Virus record (IMG/VR): IMGVR_UViG_2877982868_000002
Strand: one strand, 5' to 3'
From: a virus
Lineage: Duplodnaviria; Heunggongvirae; Uroviricota; Caudoviricetes
DNA length: 48,765 nucleotides
Under the pieces are notes generated by a model. The model was not told the origin of the DNA. It did not search any database and saw only the letters and a list, made by a program, of their open reading frames with translations. Position numbers and translations under genes: made by a program. Position 1 is the stretch's first letter; every line of letters begins with the position of its first letter. Positions 41,976 through 48,074 of the stretch are shown here, in pieces.

Positions 41976-42886
41976 TGTTCCATGTTGATAATAATTCCGG
42001 CGTGGCGAATATGCCTGCGCTGGCACCGGCGCAGAGTAATACCACCACCTGGTTTACCGAAGGTGACGGACAAAAAGGTATCAGCTGGATTGGTCAGGAC
42101 TGGCTGAATATTCTCCAGGCCGAACTGCTGAATATTCTGGCTGAAGCCAGTATTCAGCCGGATAAGGCGCAGTTAAACCAGCTTACGCTGTCCATTAAAG
42201 CCATTATCGCTGCGAATGCCTTTTCCCGGAAAAACAACCTGAAAGAAATTGCTGATGCCGGTGCGGAAGCCCAGCGTCTTGCCCGTGGTTATCTTGGTCT
42301 TGGGGCGCTTGCCACAAAAAACAGTCTTGGTCCCGGTGACGTTAATGCTCTGGCGAAGGATCAGAACCTTGCCGACCTGGAGAATGCGGGAACCGCCCGT
42401 AATAATCTGGATGTTTACAGCAAAAGCGAAGGTGATAACCGTTACCTGCGCAGGGAGCAGAACGGCGCAGACATTCCGGATAAAGGCGCTTTTATCGATA
42501 ACGTCGGTTTACGGGAAACGGTAAATAAGGCTGCTGATGCCCTGCCATCGGGTGGAACCGCCGTGGCAGCAAACAGACTCGCCACCCCAAGAAATATTAA
42601 TGGTGTTCCTTTTGACGGAACGCTGGATATCAACATCACGTCAGGAATGACGCAGTCAACCGCAGATGGCCGGTATGTACAGAATGTTCAGCTTGGAGCA
42701 CAGAGCTATCATTCACCCGGAGGCAATGAAATGTCATGGAATTACAGCGCACCTTCCGGTTGTATGCTTTCCGGAATTAACGTGCAGGAAACCGGCTCCC
42801 GGTCTGCGGACAATATCGGTGGGGTCTATTATCGCCCGGTTCAGATTTATATTAATAATGCCTGGAGAACGGTAAGTTCAGTGTAA
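41975..42886 (+). CDS. Tail fibre protein; C-terminal ~125 aa encoded inside invertible segment
   Basis: ATG 41975; C-terminal half shares ~50 aa near-identity with the minus-strand cassette, then diverges. Confidence 0.75.
   Translation: MFHVDNNSGVANMPALAPAQSNTTTWFTEGDGQKGISWIGQDWLNILQAELLNILAEASIQPDKAQLNQLTLSIKAIIAANAFSRKNNLKEIADAGAEAQRLARGYLGLGALATKNSLGPGDVNALAKDQNLADLENAGTARNNLDVYSKSEGDNRYLRREQNGADIPDKGAFIDNVGLRETVNKAADALPSGGTAVAANRLATPRNINGVPFDGTLDINITSGMTQSTADGRYVQNVQLGAQSYHSPGGNEMSWNYSAPSGCMLSGINVQETGSRSADNIGGVYYRPVQIYINNAWRTVSSV
42492..42517. repeat. gix-like invertase recombination site (left), inside tail-fibre gene
   Basis: TTATCGATAACG-TC-GGTTTACGGGAA; both half-sites resemble Gin/Hin half-site (TTATCCAAAACC / TTCCTGTAAACC). 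Confidence 0.6.
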
Positions 42887-43879
42887 ACCACAGAAAAGGG
42901 TGCTGAATGCACCCTCTGAATTATTCCGGTTTTTCCGGCCAGGGAATCGCCTGGTAATGCCCCTCACTGGCAATATCATTAAAGTGCATTTCTTTAAGCT
43001 GTCGGATATACGCCATCCAGCGCGTCAGCTGTAATTTATTTTCATCGCTAATCATGTCCAGTTTTAATTCCGTTTTCCAGTCATCCACAGTTTCGTTGGC
43101 TTCCTGGAGCAGCGATGAGCGGCGCTTTTCAGCAACCGTCTTCCAGTTTACCGGCACCTTTGATATCAGGCCATCAGAAAACTGCCAGTTACCGTCAATA
43201 TTCACACCTTCCGGCAGTTCGTCCACTTCAACAACAGTAAAACCTGCCGGATATAAAGCAGAGACATCTTCAGCAACAGAGCAGATAATACCCGTTACAG
43301 GCGAAATACAGAGTTTGTATTTCTTTGTGAAAAGCGGGATAGATTCATAAAAATCCCTTCCGTCCTCACTCTGGAAATACTGAACATCCTCACCATAGGG
43401 TTTGTGTTCCGGGTAATATCGTTTTACGTTAATAAGCTCCATTATTTCACCTTGTTTTTGTTGAAAAGACAAAATCATCATATATTTATTCAGATAATCT
43501 GTTTTTTGAACTACTGCACTTTTATGCGCTGGAAGCTGTTTTCCACGAACCATCTATCAGAAACTGAACAGGTCGATAATATGCGGTTACCGTTGCATTA
43601 CCATCACCAGCGACATCAAGCCCTGTAAGTACGCATCCGTCAGGAACCTCAAAAATATTATATTGCATTCCAATCGTTGACCTTGAACCTCTTCGAATGC
43701 TTTGAACATAACGTGAGTCAGCCACAGACTGCGTCATCCCCGATGTAATATTTATATCCTGCGTTCCGTCAAATGGGACACCATTAATATTTCTTGGAGT
43801 GGCGAGTTTATTCGCTGCAACAGCCGCTCCGTTCGATGGCAGGGCATTCGCGGCCCTGTTTACAGTATCCCGTAAACCG
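42505..43879. other. Gin-invertible host-range DNA segment (~1.4 kb)
   Basis: Bounded by inverted gix-like sites; carries plus-strand fibre tip, minus-strand alternative tip and minus-strand fibre-assembly gene; gin immediately adjacent. Confidence 0.6.
42921..43442 (-). CDS. Tail fibre assembly chaperone (Mu U/Tfa-like)
   Basis: ATG 43440-43442 (MELINVKRYYPEH...) with SD; C-terminus ...ISDENKLQLTRWMAY...PWPEKPE typical of Tfa family. Confidence 0.75.
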   Translation of the reverse strand: MELINVKRYYPEHKPYGEDVQYFQSEDGRDFYESIPLFTKKYKLCISPVTGIICSVAEDVSALYPAGFTVVEVDELPEGVNIDGNWQFSDGLISKVPVNWKTVAEKRRSSLLQEANETVDDWKTELKLDMISDENKLQLTRWMAYIRQLKEMHFNDIASEGHYQAIPWPEKPE

Positions 43880-43880
43880 A
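43522..43880 (-). CDS. Alternative tail-fibre C-terminal cassette (promoterless, no own start; expressed only after inversion)
   Basis: Minus-strand frame ...GLRDTVNRAANALPSNGAAVAANKLATPRNINGVPFDGTQDINITSGMTQS... parallels plus-strand fibre residues then diverges; stop at 43522. Confidence 0.55.
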
Positions 43881-43892
43881 GGTTTCAGGGAT
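43867..43892. repeat. gix-like invertase recombination site (right)
   Basis: ATCCCGTAAACC-GA-GGTTTCAGGGAT, imperfect palindrome, inverted relative to the left site. Confidence 0.6.
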
Positions 43893-43946: not shown

Positions 43947-44507
43947 ATGCTGATTGGCTATATACGCGTATCAACAAATGACCAGAACACAGGTTTACAA
44001 AGAAATGCGCTGGAATGTGCAGGATGTGAGCAGATTTTTGAAGATAAAATGAGTGGTAAAACGACACAGCGGCCGGGACTGAAGCGGGCACTGAAGAAAC
44101 TAAAACCCGGTGACACACTGATGGTCTGGAAACTGGACAGGCTGGGGCGCAGTATGCGCCACCTTGTTGCGCTGACAGATGAATTACAGCAACAGGGGAT
44201 AAATTTTCGTAGTCTTACTGACAACATTGATACGTCAACCCCCATGGGGCGCTTCTTTTTTCACATAATGGGTGCGCTGGCAGAAATGGAGCGTGAATTA
44301 ATTGTCGAACGGACACGGGCTGGTCTTGCAGCTGCCCGTGAAAGGGGACGAACCGGCGGCAGACCCCGTCGTCTCACGCAGGAACAATACGAGCAGGTCG
44401 GGCGTTTACTGGCCGGGGGTGTCAGTCGAAGACAGGTGGCACTTATTTTTGATATCGGCCTTTCAACCCTTTATCGTTATTATCCTGCGAGCGTTTCGGA
44501 AAAATAA
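43947..44507 (+). CDS. gin: Serine DNA invertase (Gin/Hin/Pin/Cin family)
   Basis: 186 aa; MLIGYIRVSTNDQ catalytic Ser motif, resolvase core, C-terminal HTH; SD aaggaagg. Confidence 0.9.
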   Translation: MLIGYIRVSTNDQNTGLQRNALECAGCEQIFEDKMSGKTTQRPGLKRALKKLKPGDTLMVWKLDRLGRSMRHLVALTDELQQQGINFRSLTDNIDTSTPMGRFFFHIMGALAEMERELIVERTRAGLAAARERGRTGGRPRRLTQEQYEQVGRLLAGGVSRRQVALIFDIGLSTLYRYYPASVSEK

Positions 44508-44606: not shown

Positions 44607-46646
44607 ATGACGTCCAAATGGGTTCAACTATCATCAATGCCCGGAAACTTTACTGTTAAAGTTTCCGGTGGTACAGCGGCATTTCTTGAGGCTCCCTTTC
44701 CTCCGGCCGAAACAAAAGGAGGAATGACATTTGCTGACTGTCTCATCAGTTTTAATACACGGGATTGCCTGTGGGTAAGGCCAGTATCCGGTGATCCGAG
44801 TGTGGAAATTACCGGAGCGGGTATTGGTGCGGTCATTCCGTTAAGTGCTGATGTTGCCGGTACTGCTGAACCGTCAGACTGGGATAATGCTGAAACACAT
44901 ACCCGTCCGTCAGGAAATGAAACTGCTTCCAGCTCCCCTTCCTGGTATTACGTGGTGGTTCTTGCTGGTCAGTCAAACGGTATGGCTTACGGTGAAGGTC
45001 TGCCACTGCCGGAGACATATGACCGCCCCGAACCGCGTATTATGCAGTTAGCCCGTCGCAGTACAGTCACGCCGGGAGGTAAAGCCTGTCAGTATAACGA
45101 CATCATTCTGGCCGACCACTGTCTGCATGATGTGCAGGATATGAGTGGAAAAAATCACCCGAAAGCGGATGTGGCTAAAGGGCAATATGGCACCGTGGGT
45201 CAGGGGCTTCACATTGCCAAAAAACTGCTGCCGTTTATTCCGGCAGATGCGGGGATTCTGCTGGTTCCCTGCTGCCGTGGTGGTTCTGCATTCACGGCGG
45301 GTGCTGACGGCACGTACAGTGACAACACGGGTGCTTCAGAGGACTCAGCCCGCTGGGGTGTGGATAAGCCGCTGTATAAGGACTTAATCAGCCGGACAAA
45401 AGCGGCACTGGCGAAGAACCCGAAAAACCGCCTGCTTGCTGTGGTGTGGATGCAGGGCGAGTTTGATATTGATGCGAAGCCGACGGAGCATTCCGCGCTG
45501 TTTCTGGCGATGGTGGAAAAATTCCGCGCAGACCTGGCTGAACAGGCGGAACAGTGTACCGGTGGCAGTGCTGCTGGCGTTCCGTGGATTTGTGGCGATA
45601 CCACGTATTTCTGGAAACAGAAAAATGAACCGGCATACCAGGCAATCTATGGCGGCTACAAAAACAAAACAGATAAAAACATTCATTTCGTTCCATTAAT
45701 GACAGATGAAAATGACGCGAATGTACCCACCAACAATCCGGCAGAAGACCCGGATATTGAATCCATTGGTTATTACGGCTCAACGTGGCGTAACAGTGCC
45801 GCCACCTGGACATCTGCGGACCGGGCCAGCCATTTCAGTTCATGGGCACGTCGTGGGATTATTTCCGACCGTCTGGCCACGGCAGTTCTGACTCATGCGG
45901 GGCGAACCACAGTAAAAGCCGATGTTCCATCTTCTGAAACTGAAGCACCAGTGCCGTCACCTTCAGAAACTGAAGCAGTAACCACAACACTGCTGTCTTA
46001 TCGTGTCAGTGAGTCAGAAGGAAATCTGAAAGCCCAGGGCTGGGAGCCGGCTGGCGGTAAAGCTGAAATTATCAGTGATGCAGGAGGCACAGGTGGTAAG
46101 GCAATGAAACTGACCAAGGAAACAGGTAAATCATCTTGGTATCTGGATCATGATGCCGGTACTGGTGCTGAACTGCTGAAAAATGGTGGTTTAATCAGTT
46201 GTCGTTTTAAAGTACCTGGCGACCTGGTGGCAAACCAGTATGTCATGGGGCTTTACTGGCCGGTTTCCTCTCTGCCGCAGGGTGTCACCCTGACAGGGGA
46301 TGCAGGGAATAATCTGCTGGCATCGTTCTACATCCAGACAGACGCAAAAGACCTGAATGTGATGTACCACAATGCAAAAGTGGCAACAAATAACCAGAAA
46401 CTGGGAACCTTTGGTGCATTTGATAATGAATGGCATACGCTGGCCTTCCGTTTTGCAGGAAATAACAGCCTTCAGGTTATTCCGGTTATTGATGGTCAGG
46501 ATGGTGCCGCGTTTACCCTGACGCAGTCACCAGTAGGAACTTTCCCGGTGGACAAACTCCGCGTAACGGATATCACAAAAAATGCAACTTACCCGGTGCT
46601 GATTGACAGCATTGTGGTGGAAGTGAAAAAAGCGGTAACAGAATAA
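44607..46646 (+). CDS. Multidomain carbohydrate esterase, SGNH/SASA-like (candidate sialate O-acetylesterase, NanS-p-like) with C-terminal putative glycan-binding domain
   Basis: 679 aa; VVLAGQSNGMAYGEG motif typical of SASA/SGNH esterases; Ser/Thr/Pro linker with SETEA duplication; located in cargo position between gin and com. Confidence 0.55.
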   Translation: MTSKWVQLSSMPGNFTVKVSGGTAAFLEAPFPPAETKGGMTFADCLISFNTRDCLWVRPVSGDPSVEITGAGIGAVIPLSADVAGTAEPSDWDNAETHTRPSGNETASSSPSWYYVVVLAGQSNGMAYGEGLPLPETYDRPEPRIMQLARRSTVTPGGKACQYNDIILADHCLHDVQDMSGKNHPKADVAKGQYGTVGQGLHIAKKLLPFIPADAGILLVPCCRGGSAFTAGADGTYSDNTGASEDSARWGVDKPLYKDLISRTKAALAKNPKNRLLAVVWMQGEFDIDAKPTEHSALFLAMVEKFRADLAEQAEQCTGGSAAGVPWICGDTTYFWKQKNEPAYQAIYGGYKNKTDKNIHFVPLMTDENDANVPTNNPAEDPDIESIGYYGSTWRNSAATWTSADRASHFSSWARRGIISDRLATAVLTHAGRTTVKADVPSSETEAPVPSPSETEAVTTTLLSYRVSESEGNLKAQGWEPAGGKAEIISDAGGTGGKAMKLTKETGKSSWYLDHDAGTGAELLKNGGLISCRFKVPGDLVANQYVMGLYWPVSSLPQGVTLTGDAGNNLLASFYIQTDAKDLNVMYHNAKVATNNQKLGTFGAFDNEWHTLAFRFAGNNSLQVIPVIDGQDGAAFTLTQSPVGTFPVDKLRVTDITKNATYPVLIDSIVVEVKKAVTE

Positions 46647-46792
46647 AAAAATCCCGCCGGTCATGATATGGCTGGCGGGAGCTACCTAACCCATAAAGGA
46701 AAATAAAAATACTCCCGAAGGAGTGGTTATCAGTCGCTTCGATGTTTTTACCCGATAACGAATTATGTAGTCAATATCAAAGGTAAGGTTAT

Positions 46793-46975
46793 ATGACATT
46801 CGTTCATACAATGCTGCTTTATTTCTGCGCTGTGGTCAGTGCGTTATATCTGGTGAGCGGTGGTTATAAGGTCATCAGAAATTATATTCGCCGTAAAATT
46901 GATGATGCGGCAGCTGAAAAACTCAGTAAAACAGCACAGGCACCGTCATCCCCAAACGACCCGACCCCGCTCTGA
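46793..46975 (+). CDS. Small membrane protein
   Basis: 60 aa; SD aaggtaagg; TM helix MLLYFCAVVSALYLVSGG. Confidence 0.4.
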   Translation: MTFVHTMLLYFCAVVSALYLVSGGYKVIRNYIRRKIDDAAAEKLSKTAQAPSSPNDPTPL

Positions 46976-47010
46976 TAACGGGGCAATATACCTGCAAAAG
47001 GAGAATATTC

Positions 47011-47256
47011 ATGCCAGAGATTAAAGGCACGGTTACTGAAGAGCTTGTCAAACAGGCACTTTATTCTGAAGAAGTGAACCGCGTGCTGAAGGCGCAGGTT
47101 CGCAAGGATTTTGAGGCACAAATCGACGCATATGTTGATGAAGTGCTGGCCCGAATGGTTGGCCGTTCTCCGGCTGAAAACAGCACGGAAAATGATCCTC
47201 AACCCGTAGAGCAACCAGAGCCGGTTCAGCCCGGAACTGACGGTACTATGATGTAA
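47011..47256 (+). CDS. Small acidic hypothetical protein
   Basis: 81 aa; strong SD aaaggagaa; followed by hairpin terminator. Confidence 0.45.
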   Translation: MPEIKGTVTEELVKQALYSEEVNRVLKAQVRKDFEAQIDAYVDEVLARMVGRSPAENSTENDPQPVEQPEPVQPGTDGTMM

Positions 47257-47652: not shown

Positions 47653-47826
47653 GATCCTACCTTCACTGTATAAAAAGTCAATAAAATGATCATTTTATGA
47701 TCGTTTTCACCACCTAACTCTTCGTTTTCTTTAAGTAAATAATCACCTCCCTGAATCATTGTTGATGACTTTTCAATCTATTTGTTGTATCAATTAAACA
47801 AATCGAATCGATCGTTTTTGTCGATC
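47653..47826. promoter_or_regulatory. com-mom regulatory leader with clustered Dam (GATC) sites
   Basis: GATC at 47653, 47688, 47699 (three within 50 bp) and at 47810, 47823 (in CGATCG context), all upstream of com ATG. Confidence 0.4.
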
Positions 47827-47873
47827 GATTGCATGAGAAAGGCATCAACAACAAAGCAGGAGGTTATGCGGTC

Positions 47874-48074
47874 ATGTATCGAAACATACGGTGCCGACAC
47901 TGCAATAAGCTACTGGCACGGGCCAGTTTCAGTTATCTGGAAGTAAAATGTCCGCGCTGTAAAACCCTCAATCAAATCACATCTCCGAGCGCCACAGAGC
48001 ACCCCACATACACAAGGAAATCCTGTCGTGGGGAACAGAAAGCAAGTCACATCCCGAATCATCAGCACGCCTGA
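47874..48074 (+). CDS. com: Com translational activator of mom (zinc-finger)
   Basis: 66 aa from ATG 47874 with SD ggagg; [11 protein letters not shown]...CPRCKT Cys4 motif as in Mu Com; overlaps mom start. Confidence 0.75.

Follow-up and report, generated by a model that had tools for sequence, protein, structure and literature searches.

The 1,377-bp region described here is a Gin-type tail-fibre tip inversion switch, a compact relative of the G segment of Mu. We estimate at roughly nine in ten the probability that it is a working Gin-family host-specificity switch of its prophage. The window, that is, the whole stretch of 48,765 nucleotides that was analysed, is an Sp18-type Mu-like prophage of Shiga-toxigenic E. 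coli. The switch as such is already known, inversion having been mentioned in the literature for the Sp18 prophage family. Its sole unusual feature is a single chaperone gene, compared with the two of Mu. A search of the literature for studies devoted to the Sp18 segment yielded just a one-sentence mention and an array table, and no published description of its crossover sites, junction, orientation frequencies or single chaperone was found in that search.

Results

Identity and distribution of the prophage

Sp18 of E. coli O157:H7 Sakai (ECs_4989-ECs_4992) is the same element, with identical gene order and orientation; the S, Sv, Sv', chaperone and invertase proteins are 100% identical between the window and Sakai Sp18. 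The chromosomal site differs: the window copy lies beside the gene for a large Ig-repeat protein, whereas Sakai Sp18 is located in sorM. E. coli M7638 gave a 100.0% match, and the prophage there sits within a lambdoid prophage. Prophages of the Sp18 type also insert into Stx phages.

Among 5,426 complete genomes, 785 matched a search query that included the widely shared invertase gene, and about 200 carry exactly this invertible segment. Employing the constant fibre part as the query, we found 4 loci only in genome contigs, among them a complete comparable segment in Citrobacter braakii and an Edwardsiella locus that ends at its own gix-like site; a scan of IMG/VR was far richer.

Table 1. 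Features of the invertible segment and its flanks (positions in the window)
Feature	Position	Strand	Remarks
Constant N-terminal part of fibre gene S, 176 codons	41975-42503	+	Outside the segment; attaches the fibre to the baseplate
Left crossover site, gixL-like	42492-42517		12-bp half-sites around central TC (42504-42505)
Variable fibre end Sv, expressed in window orientation	42504-42886	+	Linker of ~57 aa and distal tip of ~67 aa
Terminator-like hairpin followed by a T-run	42895-42917	-	Between the convergent fibre and chaperone genes
Tail-fibre assembly chaperone, 173 aa	42921-43442	-	Sole one in the segment; downstream of Sv'
Alternative fibre end Sv', startless, silent in window orientation	43522-43880	-	From translation and in-silico inversion
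Right crossover site, gixR-like	43867-43892		Inverted relative to the left site; central GA (= TC) at 43879-43880
Serine DNA invertase, Gin orthologue, 186 aa	43947-44507	+	Corresponds to Sakai ECs_4992, annotated DNA-invertase
Candidate Fis-dependent recombinational enhancer	43968-44031		Inside the 5' end of the invertase gene; conserved blocks

Two gix-like crossover sites delimit the segment

The 26-bp sites that the first-pass annotation had placed at 42492-42517 and 43867-43892 were found exactly there. The left site reads TTATCGATAACG-TC-GGTTTACGGGAA, and the right site, as its reverse complement, ATCCCTGAAACC-TC-GGTTTACGGGAT. Their proposed kinship with gix was borne out by comparison with the sequence in the Mu record, TTATCCAAAACCTCGGTTTACAGGAA, which is present at both ends of the G segment: the left site matches it at 22 of 26 positions and the right site at 19, and the two were the best matches to Mu gix on either strand of the 48.8-kb window. 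The best score per shuffle was 16-18 in 199 of 200 shuffles and 19 in the remaining one, a score of 22 being reached in none; chance palindromes as the origin of the sites were thereby ruled out. The right site, which aligns gap-free with Mu gixR, has a weak outer half-site (7/12 matches to Mu).

Read in the same sense, both cores are TC, and the two sites are inverted relative to each other. No third site scoring at least 18/26 to Mu gix was present in the window. The segment that they delimit, 1,377 bp against 3,060 bp in Mu, is indeed the shorter one, as had been claimed. Its ends lie in an inverted repeat with arms of 182 nt (42500-42681 and 43703-43884) that are 79% complementary; the four longest stretches of perfect match between the arms measure 20, 14, 13 and 13 bp.

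Inversion exchanges the end of the tail fibre

The fibre gene S comes after the gp47/gp48 baseplate genes. Its constant part is 46% identical to residues 1-191 of Mu S, matches PDB 5yvq (Mu S) with E=4e-49 and ends at the motif FI(D/Q)N(V/L)-GL(R/Q)ETVN, which is the position of the G-segment boundary in Mu. Together with Sv it makes up a 303-aa fibre that is matched over its full length by phrog_1833 (tail fibre). The Sv tip (fibre residues 231-302) is 41% identical to residues 437-503 of Mu S. Inversion fuses Sv' to the constant part, generating a 295-aa fibre, and the intact S-Sv' fusion is present in naturally flipped genomes, in agreement with the tip swap that had been predicted.

Sv and Sv' have 50 of their first 60 residues in common and are 61% identical overall. 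A near-identical linker of about 57 residues is followed by tips of about 67 and 59 residues. The earlier account of the fibre ends held for the shared beginning and the diverging tips; the tips themselves turned out not to be unrelated, and homology links them with one another and with the tips at the C-termini of Mu S and S'. Inversion swaps the last ~125 residues of the 303-aa fibre. A change of host range would be expected, given how the tips diverge and that they are homologous to the tip of Mu S.

The invertase and its candidate enhancer

The first-pass annotation had mentioned neither the invertase gene nor the presence of one chaperone gene instead of two. The invertase contains a Resolvase domain (PF00239, E=1e-51) and an HTH_7 domain (PF02796, E=2e-14), with the active-site motif YIRVSTNDQ including Ser9; its gap-free alignment with Mu Gin spans 181 residues (76% identity, 90% positives). 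At 60-80% identity to it there are 96 phage records; among the matches listed, those in this range are labelled DNA invertase or are unannotated. Between the right-hand core and the gene there are 67.5 bp, exactly as in Mu.

The invertase has the basic helix-B residues K46, R47 and K50, equivalents of K47, R48 and K51 of Hin, whose numbering is offset by one residue from that of the window protein. A Q-V-G-R-L sequence is present at the aligned positions of the Fis-contact patch (Q-x-G-R-L). In Hin, contact with Fis and the enhancer is made by K47, K/R48 and K/R51 together with Q151, R154 and L155, residues reported to be specific to Fis-dependent invertases (PMC3798978).

Two 15-bp G-N13-C blocks within the 5' part of the invertase gene, at 43968-43982 and 44017-44031, agree with the corresponding positions of Mu gin in 15/15 and 14/15 nucleotides, respectively, with just ~62% identity in the 34 bp between them. 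The DNA from gixR through the 5' end of the invertase gene aligns gap-free with Mu, and the blocks lie at the same distance from the right-hand core. On these grounds, 43968-44031 is the probable recombinational enhancer; its function is predicted from the work of Kahmann et al. 1985 (cited in PMC3798978). Across codons 6-30 of the invertase gene, which include the candidate enhancer, synonymous divergence was not reduced overall (pS 0.73 versus 0.71), and conservation in this region is confined to the two blocks.

Both orientations occur in natural genomes

We inverted the segment of the window in silico and compared the flipped version with complete E. coli genomes. It matched genomes of FORC_044, O157:H7 2-6-2 and 07_3636 in one piece with 100% identity. 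In total, about 181 complete genomes share the orientation of the window, against 23 with the segment flipped. In the latter, the crossover falls in the 13-bp interval 42504-42516, which contains the core. A search for both orientations had been suggested by the first-pass annotation, which named a single orientation, and sites that fail to align with known gix/hix sites, as refuting its reading; neither was observed, the second orientation having its junction at the core as predicted. Compared with the window, strain O157:H7 2-6-2 showed 1 mismatch in 4,604 nt of the left flank, 0 in the 1,377 nt of the flipped middle and 9 in 4,720 nt of the right flank. Strain 07_3636 contains the segment twice, once in each orientation, and both copies match their respective query with 100% identity.

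IMG/VR relatives with an invertase have the chaperone gene on the minus strand in 11 cases and on the plus strand in 4. Of 47 IMG/VR contigs ending downstream of the S gene, 11 stop within -21 to +30 bp of gix, compared with ~0.4 expected if contig ends were evenly spread. From the near-isogenic genomes, the two-copy genomes and the contig breaks, we infer that the segment switches within one clone. The ~9:1 skew between orientations may stem from the clonal way in which O157 has been sampled; selection or different rates of switching in the two directions would have the same effect.

One chaperone gene and two fibre tips

The chaperone, annotated as ECs_4990 in Sakai, belongs to the Caudo_TAP family (PF02413, E=2e-18 in Pfam), matches phrog_136 with E=6e-58 and is 30-32% identical to U and U' of Mu. 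Every Sp18-like relative examined had a single chaperone gene. With the segment oriented as in the window, the fibre gene that is expressed has no chaperone gene downstream, unlike in Mu, and only 34 nt lie between the stop codons of S and the chaperone gene. The hairpin in between has 9 pairs and the tail TCTGTGGTTT, and is terminator-like by match to the consensus; an equivalent hairpin is found in the relative L020. Seven related loci have lost Sv', gixR and the invertase gene and are locked in the window orientation. In these loci the chaperone gene is intact and converges with the fibre gene; comparisons among the seven gave it a dN/dS of 0.11-0.23.

This arrangement could mean that inversion turns the fibre on and off: only the flipped state, with the chaperone gene downstream of the fibre gene, would assemble the fibre, and the window state would produce fibre-defective, non-infectious particles. 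In the window orientation, the sole chaperone gene is indeed antisense to the late operon, and for the homologous tip of Mu S, the annotation gives an assembly chaperone of its own, U. Nor was a convincing promoter found upstream of the chaperone gene: sigma-70 scans gave none there in the window, and just one weak match (9/12) in the locked relative L020. Nonetheless, we consider an on/off switch unlikely. The chaperone-less end Sv is intact in every variant and under purifying selection, with dN/dS of about 0.1 (0.10-0.13 against the L009 allele); the seven invertase-less relatives are locked in precisely the supposed "off" orientation and have kept an intact convergent chaperone gene; and that orientation is the one found in the majority of natural genomes. 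In an array study of Sakai, moreover, ECs4990 and ECs4991 (silent strand) were co-induced without their neighbours, which points to a transcript of their own.

We also looked for late promoters of the Mu C type. The pattern TTAT-N4-7-ATAA gave 5 matches in the window, none of them upstream of known late operons. P-mom of Mu has the dyad TTATGCCCCAATAA, and the com/mom upstream region of the window is without it. The idea was given up as uninformative.

The purifying selection on the convergent chaperone gene of the locked relatives suggests one chaperone for both tips, and a comparison of chaperone type with tip type showed no clear pairing with either tip. Supported by the seven locked derivatives, this lack of co-variation and the apparent silent-strand transcription in Sakai, we tentatively propose a minimal Din-family host-range switch, in which a tip cassette of ~60-67 aa is exchanged and one chaperone, transcribed independently of the orientation of the segment, might serve both tips.

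Source of the orientation polymorphism

Could the switch be a frozen relic, with sites and invertase still recognisable but inversion ceased, the two orientations being old alleles inherited separately? The strongly skewed ratio of 181:23 would fit, as would the seven loci that have truly lost their switch. Against this, prophages of opposite orientation are near-identical (no mismatch in 1,377 bp and 10 in 9.3 kb of flanks), two copies of opposite orientation occur in one genome, contig breaks at gix are far above chance, and the invertase, which is intact, is conserved at 98-100% among loci whose fibre alleles have only 61-71% identity. We therefore regard a relic as very improbable. Least credible is that RecA-dependent homologous recombination between the 182-bp arms, rather than recombination at the gix sites, makes the polymorphism: the arms are 79% identical, and in allele L012 the region immediately inside the left site contains a patch from the other arm, acquired non-reciprocally, which indicates that homologous exchange or gene conversion between them does occur, but the exact runs (20 bp at most) are short for RecA-dependent exchange, the junction of the flipped genomes with 100% matches lies in the 13-bp run containing the core and not in the 20- or 14-bp runs, and an intact Gin orthologue and candidate enhancer adjoin the segment.

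Discussion

Proposed mechanism

As a working Gin-family switch, the region would operate as follows. The invertase would bind the two inverted gix-like sites, cut both at the central TC, and rotate and rejoin the strands, leaving the 1,377 bp flipped. By homology with the known systems, inversion would need host Fis bound to the candidate enhancer at the start of the invertase gene, and, as a Din-family reaction, negative supercoiling. Because the left site lies within the fibre gene, the constant part of 176 residues becomes joined to either Sv or Sv'. The window state would thus produce the 303-aa fibre ending in Sv, and the flipped state the 295-aa fibre ending in Sv', with the chaperone gene following it. 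Since there are two ends, and their distal tips are homologues of the receptor-binding tip of Mu S, lysogens as a population should release phage of two receptor specificities. The dependence on Fis and the enhancer, like the difference in host range, is predicted from these homologies.

Significance

Tail-fibre inversion is a classic form of bet-hedging that widens the host range of a phage, and here it is found in a transposable prophage common in Shiga-toxigenic E. coli. An active switch bears on the prediction of hosts that can be reached by Sp18-type particles. It also matters for annotation and assembly: flipped copies are often mislabelled as "hypothetical protein" or partial pseudogenes, and contigs break at the crossover sites. 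The single-chaperone layout, if confirmed, would inform how specific tail-fibre chaperones must be; the known mechanism of inversion is unchanged by it.

Comparison with known systems

The G segment of Mu has the same layout: a constant part of S, gixL within S, opposed variable ends, gixR, and an invertase gene, with an enhancer at its 5' end that has a candidate counterpart in the window. Site sequences, site-to-gene spacing and the protein motif at the crossover are conserved in the window, which, in the manner of Mu, has a crossover site inside the fibre gene and alternative C-termini inside the segment. The variable ends differ in length, ~120-127 aa in the window and ~320-335 aa in Mu, the central ~200 aa of Mu Sv being missing from the window. 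Mu has a chaperone for each fibre end, U and U', whereas the window has one Caudo_TAP gene. Unlike in Mu, the inverted repeat of the window runs on for 182 bp as imperfect coding homology. Another difference is the esterase module that lies between the invertase gene and com/mom in the window prophage.

With a small serine recombinase, two inverted 26-bp sites with identical cores and both orientations represented, the switch shares these features with the Din family. The C segment of P1 with Cin, the P segment of e14 with Pin, and Min of p15B combine interchangeable serine invertases, 26-bp sites and Fis enhancers with swaps of the fibre C-terminus. Two chaperone genes are found in P1 and e14, and six sites in p15B, compared with one chaperone and just two sites in the window. 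With two crossover sites, the switch is not of the multiple-inversion type (p15B Min, shufflons). The Citrobacter braakii relative (L004) probably has three sites.

Hin of Salmonella belongs to the same invertase subclass and acts with 26-bp sites and a Fis-bound enhancer (PMC3798978); the residues with which it contacts Fis and the enhancer are conserved in the window invertase. Hin flips a promoter and thereby switches flagellin genes, whereas the switch described here exchanges a coding end.

Crossover sites and inversion

The invertible segment (1,377 bp between cores) is bounded by two 26-bp sites, which the first-pass annotation had correctly placed and which form the outer ends of an inverted repeat (182 nt, 79% complementary). 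The left site reads TTATCGATAACG-TC-GGTTTACGGGAA and the right site, as reverse complement, ATCCCTGAAACC-TC-GGTTTACGGGAT. The Mu genome record gives gix as TTATCCAAAACCTCGGTTTACAGGAA at each boundary of the G segment, and the window's sites match it at 22/26 (left) and 19/26 (right) positions. These are the two best gix matches on both strands of the whole window, and 200 shuffles gave a best score of 16-18 in all but one, which reached 19; the likeness to gix that the annotation had proposed is therefore borne out. The central dinucleotides of the two sites are identical in the same reading sense, as serine-invertase inversion requires.

We flipped 42504-43880 in silico and ran the query against all complete E. 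coli genomes. In FORC_044, O157:H7 2-6-2 and 07_3636, 2,701 of 2,701 bases of the flipped query matched in one piece at 100% identity. Among complete E. coli genomes, 23 carry the flipped orientation, in which the fibre gene S is joined to the alternative end Sv' (flipped-query matches at ≥80% coverage), versus 181 with the window orientation, S joined to Sv. Finished genomes thus supply both orientations, for which a search had been suggested earlier, with exchange at the core. In strain 2-6-2 the exchange point is bracketed to the 13 bp 42504-42516, central TC included, a resolution possible because the repeat arms differ in sequence. Homologous recombination between the arms is an unlikely cause of the inversion, since exact runs between them are short and the junction lies in this 13-bp core run, outside the longer runs (20 and 14 bp) further inward.

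It is also unlikely that the segment is a frozen relic in which inversion no longer occurs. The 2-6-2 and window prophages are near-isogenic, with 1 mismatch in 4,604 nt of left flank, 0 in 1,377 of flipped segment and 9 in 4,720 of right flank, and 07_3636 holds two oppositely oriented prophage copies, both of which match their respective query at 100% identity. Among IMG/VR relatives with an invertase gene, the chaperone gene is on the minus strand in 11 and on the plus strand in 4. Contigs also break at the crossover site: of 47 IMG/VR contigs ending downstream of S, 11 (L027, L038, L039, L040, L042, L044, L061, L064, L069, L071 and L072) end -21 to +30 bp from it (~0.4 expected by chance), in Mu-like loci and loci like Sp18 (the Mu-like prophage of O157:H7 Sakai) alike. 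Such ends are the assembler behaviour expected at a two-state junction; invertible segments systematically cause breaks in assemblies and wrong annotations as partial "phage tail protein" pseudogenes. This is an actively inverting, compact Gin-type tail-fibre segment of the Sp18 family; what the first-pass annotation had observed is confirmed, and its interpretation is supported.

Features of the invertible segment and its surroundings (window coordinates)
Feature	Position	Strand	Remarks
ORF with Big_13 Ig-like repeats	1-9684		>3,227 aa; 16 matched stretches
Baseplate genes gp47, gp48	40.3-42.0 kb		Baseplate_J; Phage_Mu_Gp48
Fibre gene S	start 41975		first 176 codons outside segment
Left crossover site	42492-42517		
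Left repeat arm	42500-42681		
Sv	stop 42886	+	inside segment; 127 codons
Tail-fibre chaperone gene	43442 to 42921	-	Caudo_TAP; 30-32% identical to Mu U and U'
Sv'	43880 to 43522	-	start-less frame; 119 codons
Right repeat arm	43703-43884		
Right crossover site	43867-43892		
G-N13-C blocks	43968-43982, 44017-44031		15 bp each
SASA/DUF6645, DUF1378, DUF826 genes	44607-47256		first product 679 aa
GATC cluster	~47797-47830		
com, mom	47874-48765		Zn_ribbon_Com; Mom family; right end of window

Invertase and candidate enhancer

The invertase (186 aa; Resolvase, HTH_7) aligns gaplessly with Mu Gin over 181 residues at 76% identity. Its start codon lies 67.5 bp right of the right-hand core; the alignment with Mu is gapless from the right site into the gene, so the core-to-start distance is the same in both. 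A ~60-bp Fis-bound enhancer in the 5' end of the invertase gene has been described for Mu and Salmonella (Kahmann et al. 1985; Johnson & Simon 1985, cited in PMC3798978). At the equivalent place the window has two G-N13-C blocks, identical to Mu at 15/15 and 14/15 positions, whereas the 34-bp spacer is only ~62% identical. The window invertase retains the basic helix-B residues and the Q-x-G-R-L patch, described in PMC3798978 as conserved only in Fis-dependent invertases. Judged by sequence, a candidate Fis-bound enhancer is conserved in the 5' end of the gene.

Exchangeable fibre ends

The constant part of S is 46% identical to the Mu S N-terminus and ends at the Mu G-boundary motif (FIDNV/GLRETVN in the window, FIQNL/GLQETVN in Mu). 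Of the first 60 residues of Sv and Sv', 50 are the same, after which the two diverge (61% identity overall), in agreement with the earlier description of a near-identical stretch inside the sites followed by different tips. Each tip has its homologue in the C-terminal ~70 residues of Mu S and S'; that of Sv is 41% identical to the Mu S tip and matches the solved Mu S structure 5yvq. The Mu variable shaft has ~200 more residues, and this deletion plus the absent second chaperone gene account for a segment of 1,377 bp versus 3,060 bp in Mu, shorter than the G segment as had been claimed. The compact fibre belongs to a phage family already recognised, matching phrog_1833 over its full length. In naturally flipped genomes the 295-aa S-Sv' fusion is intact as predicted, and PGAP frequently calls it "hypothetical protein" or misses it.

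Relatives carry at least 4 chaperone-proximal and 2 distal tip types; the tips thus act as interchangeable cassettes. In one flipped locus (L012, E. coli 2012C-4502), the other arm's sequence occupies the first ~30 nt inward of the left site (equivalent of 42517-42532), and the right arm shows no reciprocal change. This patch is gene conversion between the repeat arms, which could help keep the ~57-aa linkers of both fibre ends alike.

A single chaperone gene

In Mu, each orientation has a chaperone gene of its own (U or U'), whereas the window segment has a single one, positioned after Sv'. In the window orientation, which is that of Sakai and of the majority, the expressed fibre thus lacks a chaperone gene downstream, and the chaperone gene runs antisense to the late operon. 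The same layout was found in a Citrobacter braakii relative and in every Sp18-like variant examined, so it is not a one-strain accident; at Mu- and D108-type loci the survey found a pair of chaperone genes.

As to function, the strongest rival is an on/off switch, in which only the flipped state would give a working fibre. Against it, Sv is under selection (dN/dS 0.10-0.13 versus a diverged allele), so the tip without a chaperone is not decaying, and locked derivatives are fixed in the window orientation. Seven IMG/VR loci (L020, L021, L022, L030, L032, L037 and L045) lack most of Sv', the right-hand site and the invertase; the chaperone-to-esterase gap is 314 bp in 7/7, indicating the same deletion. 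They retain the fibre gene and an intact convergent chaperone (dN/dS 0.11-0.23 among the seven). Among relatives, chaperone type tracks neither tip. In a Sakai microarray study, ECs4990 and ECs4991, but none of the Sp18 genes next to them, are listed as up ~2.1-fold at the transition to stationary phase. Layout across relatives, selection on Sv, locked loci, lack of tip pairing and the Sakai array together point to, though do not prove, separate transcription of the chaperone gene and a chaperone shared by both tips. No convincing chaperone promoter was found in the window or in the locked locus L020.

Prophage setting

The window is a Mu-like transposable prophage within an E. coli chromosome. 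Transposase-sized ORFs from ~10.9 kb occupy the Mu A/B position; their annotations in relatives are Mu transposase C-terminal domain protein and AAA ATPase. About 180 complete E. coli genomes, O157:H7, O26, O103 and O111 strains among them, match 2.7 kb around the segment at 95-100% identity. The Sakai Sp18 region has the same gene order and orientation with 100% identical proteins: ECs_4989 (fibre), ECs_4990 (chaperone), ECs_4991 (fibre fragment) and ECs_4992 (DNA-invertase).

A GATC cluster upstream of com/mom resembles the mom control region of Mu; the Mu C-binding dyad TTAT-N6-ATAA is absent there. Mu has nothing between the invertase gene and com/mom, whereas the window has genes for a SASA (sialate O-acetylesterase-like)/DUF6645 protein, DUF1378 and DUF826. 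E. coli M7638 has a lambdoid prophage with the same trio upstream of its holin, and the module therefore looks like one gained by the Mu-like phage from a lambdoid phage.

The Big_13-repeat ORF continues past the left window edge and stops ~100 bp short of the likely left prophage end; presumably it encodes a surface adhesin of the host. In Sakai the same Mu-like prophage lies in sorM, in M7638 (L011) inside a lambdoid prophage adjoining the terminase small-subunit gene, and it is also harboured by Stx1a- and Stx2c-converting phages (LC727881, LC727895). Such varied insertion places fit active transposition.

Comparison with known systems

The segment is not new, as the Sp18 family has already been described (Asadulghani et al.) and ECs_4992 is called a DNA-invertase in the Sakai annotation. 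Systematic surveys report confirmed Mu-like fibre inversions in prophages (PMC9881135). Literature searches returned no published description of the sites, junction, orientation frequencies, locked derivatives or single chaperone.

The C. braakii relative (L004/L056, 6812-9223) has a longer fibre of 472 aa and one convergent chaperone gene. It apparently has three gix-like sites, at 6812 (+), ~8856 and ~9205 (-), which would permit more than two alternative tips. The layout in the window matches the Mu-type host-range switch, but the paired chaperones of Mu are absent. By mechanism and membership, the window system is a Din-family (Gin/Cin/Pin/Hin) inversion system, with the recombinase, sites, cores, invertase-specific residues and observed inversion of that family.
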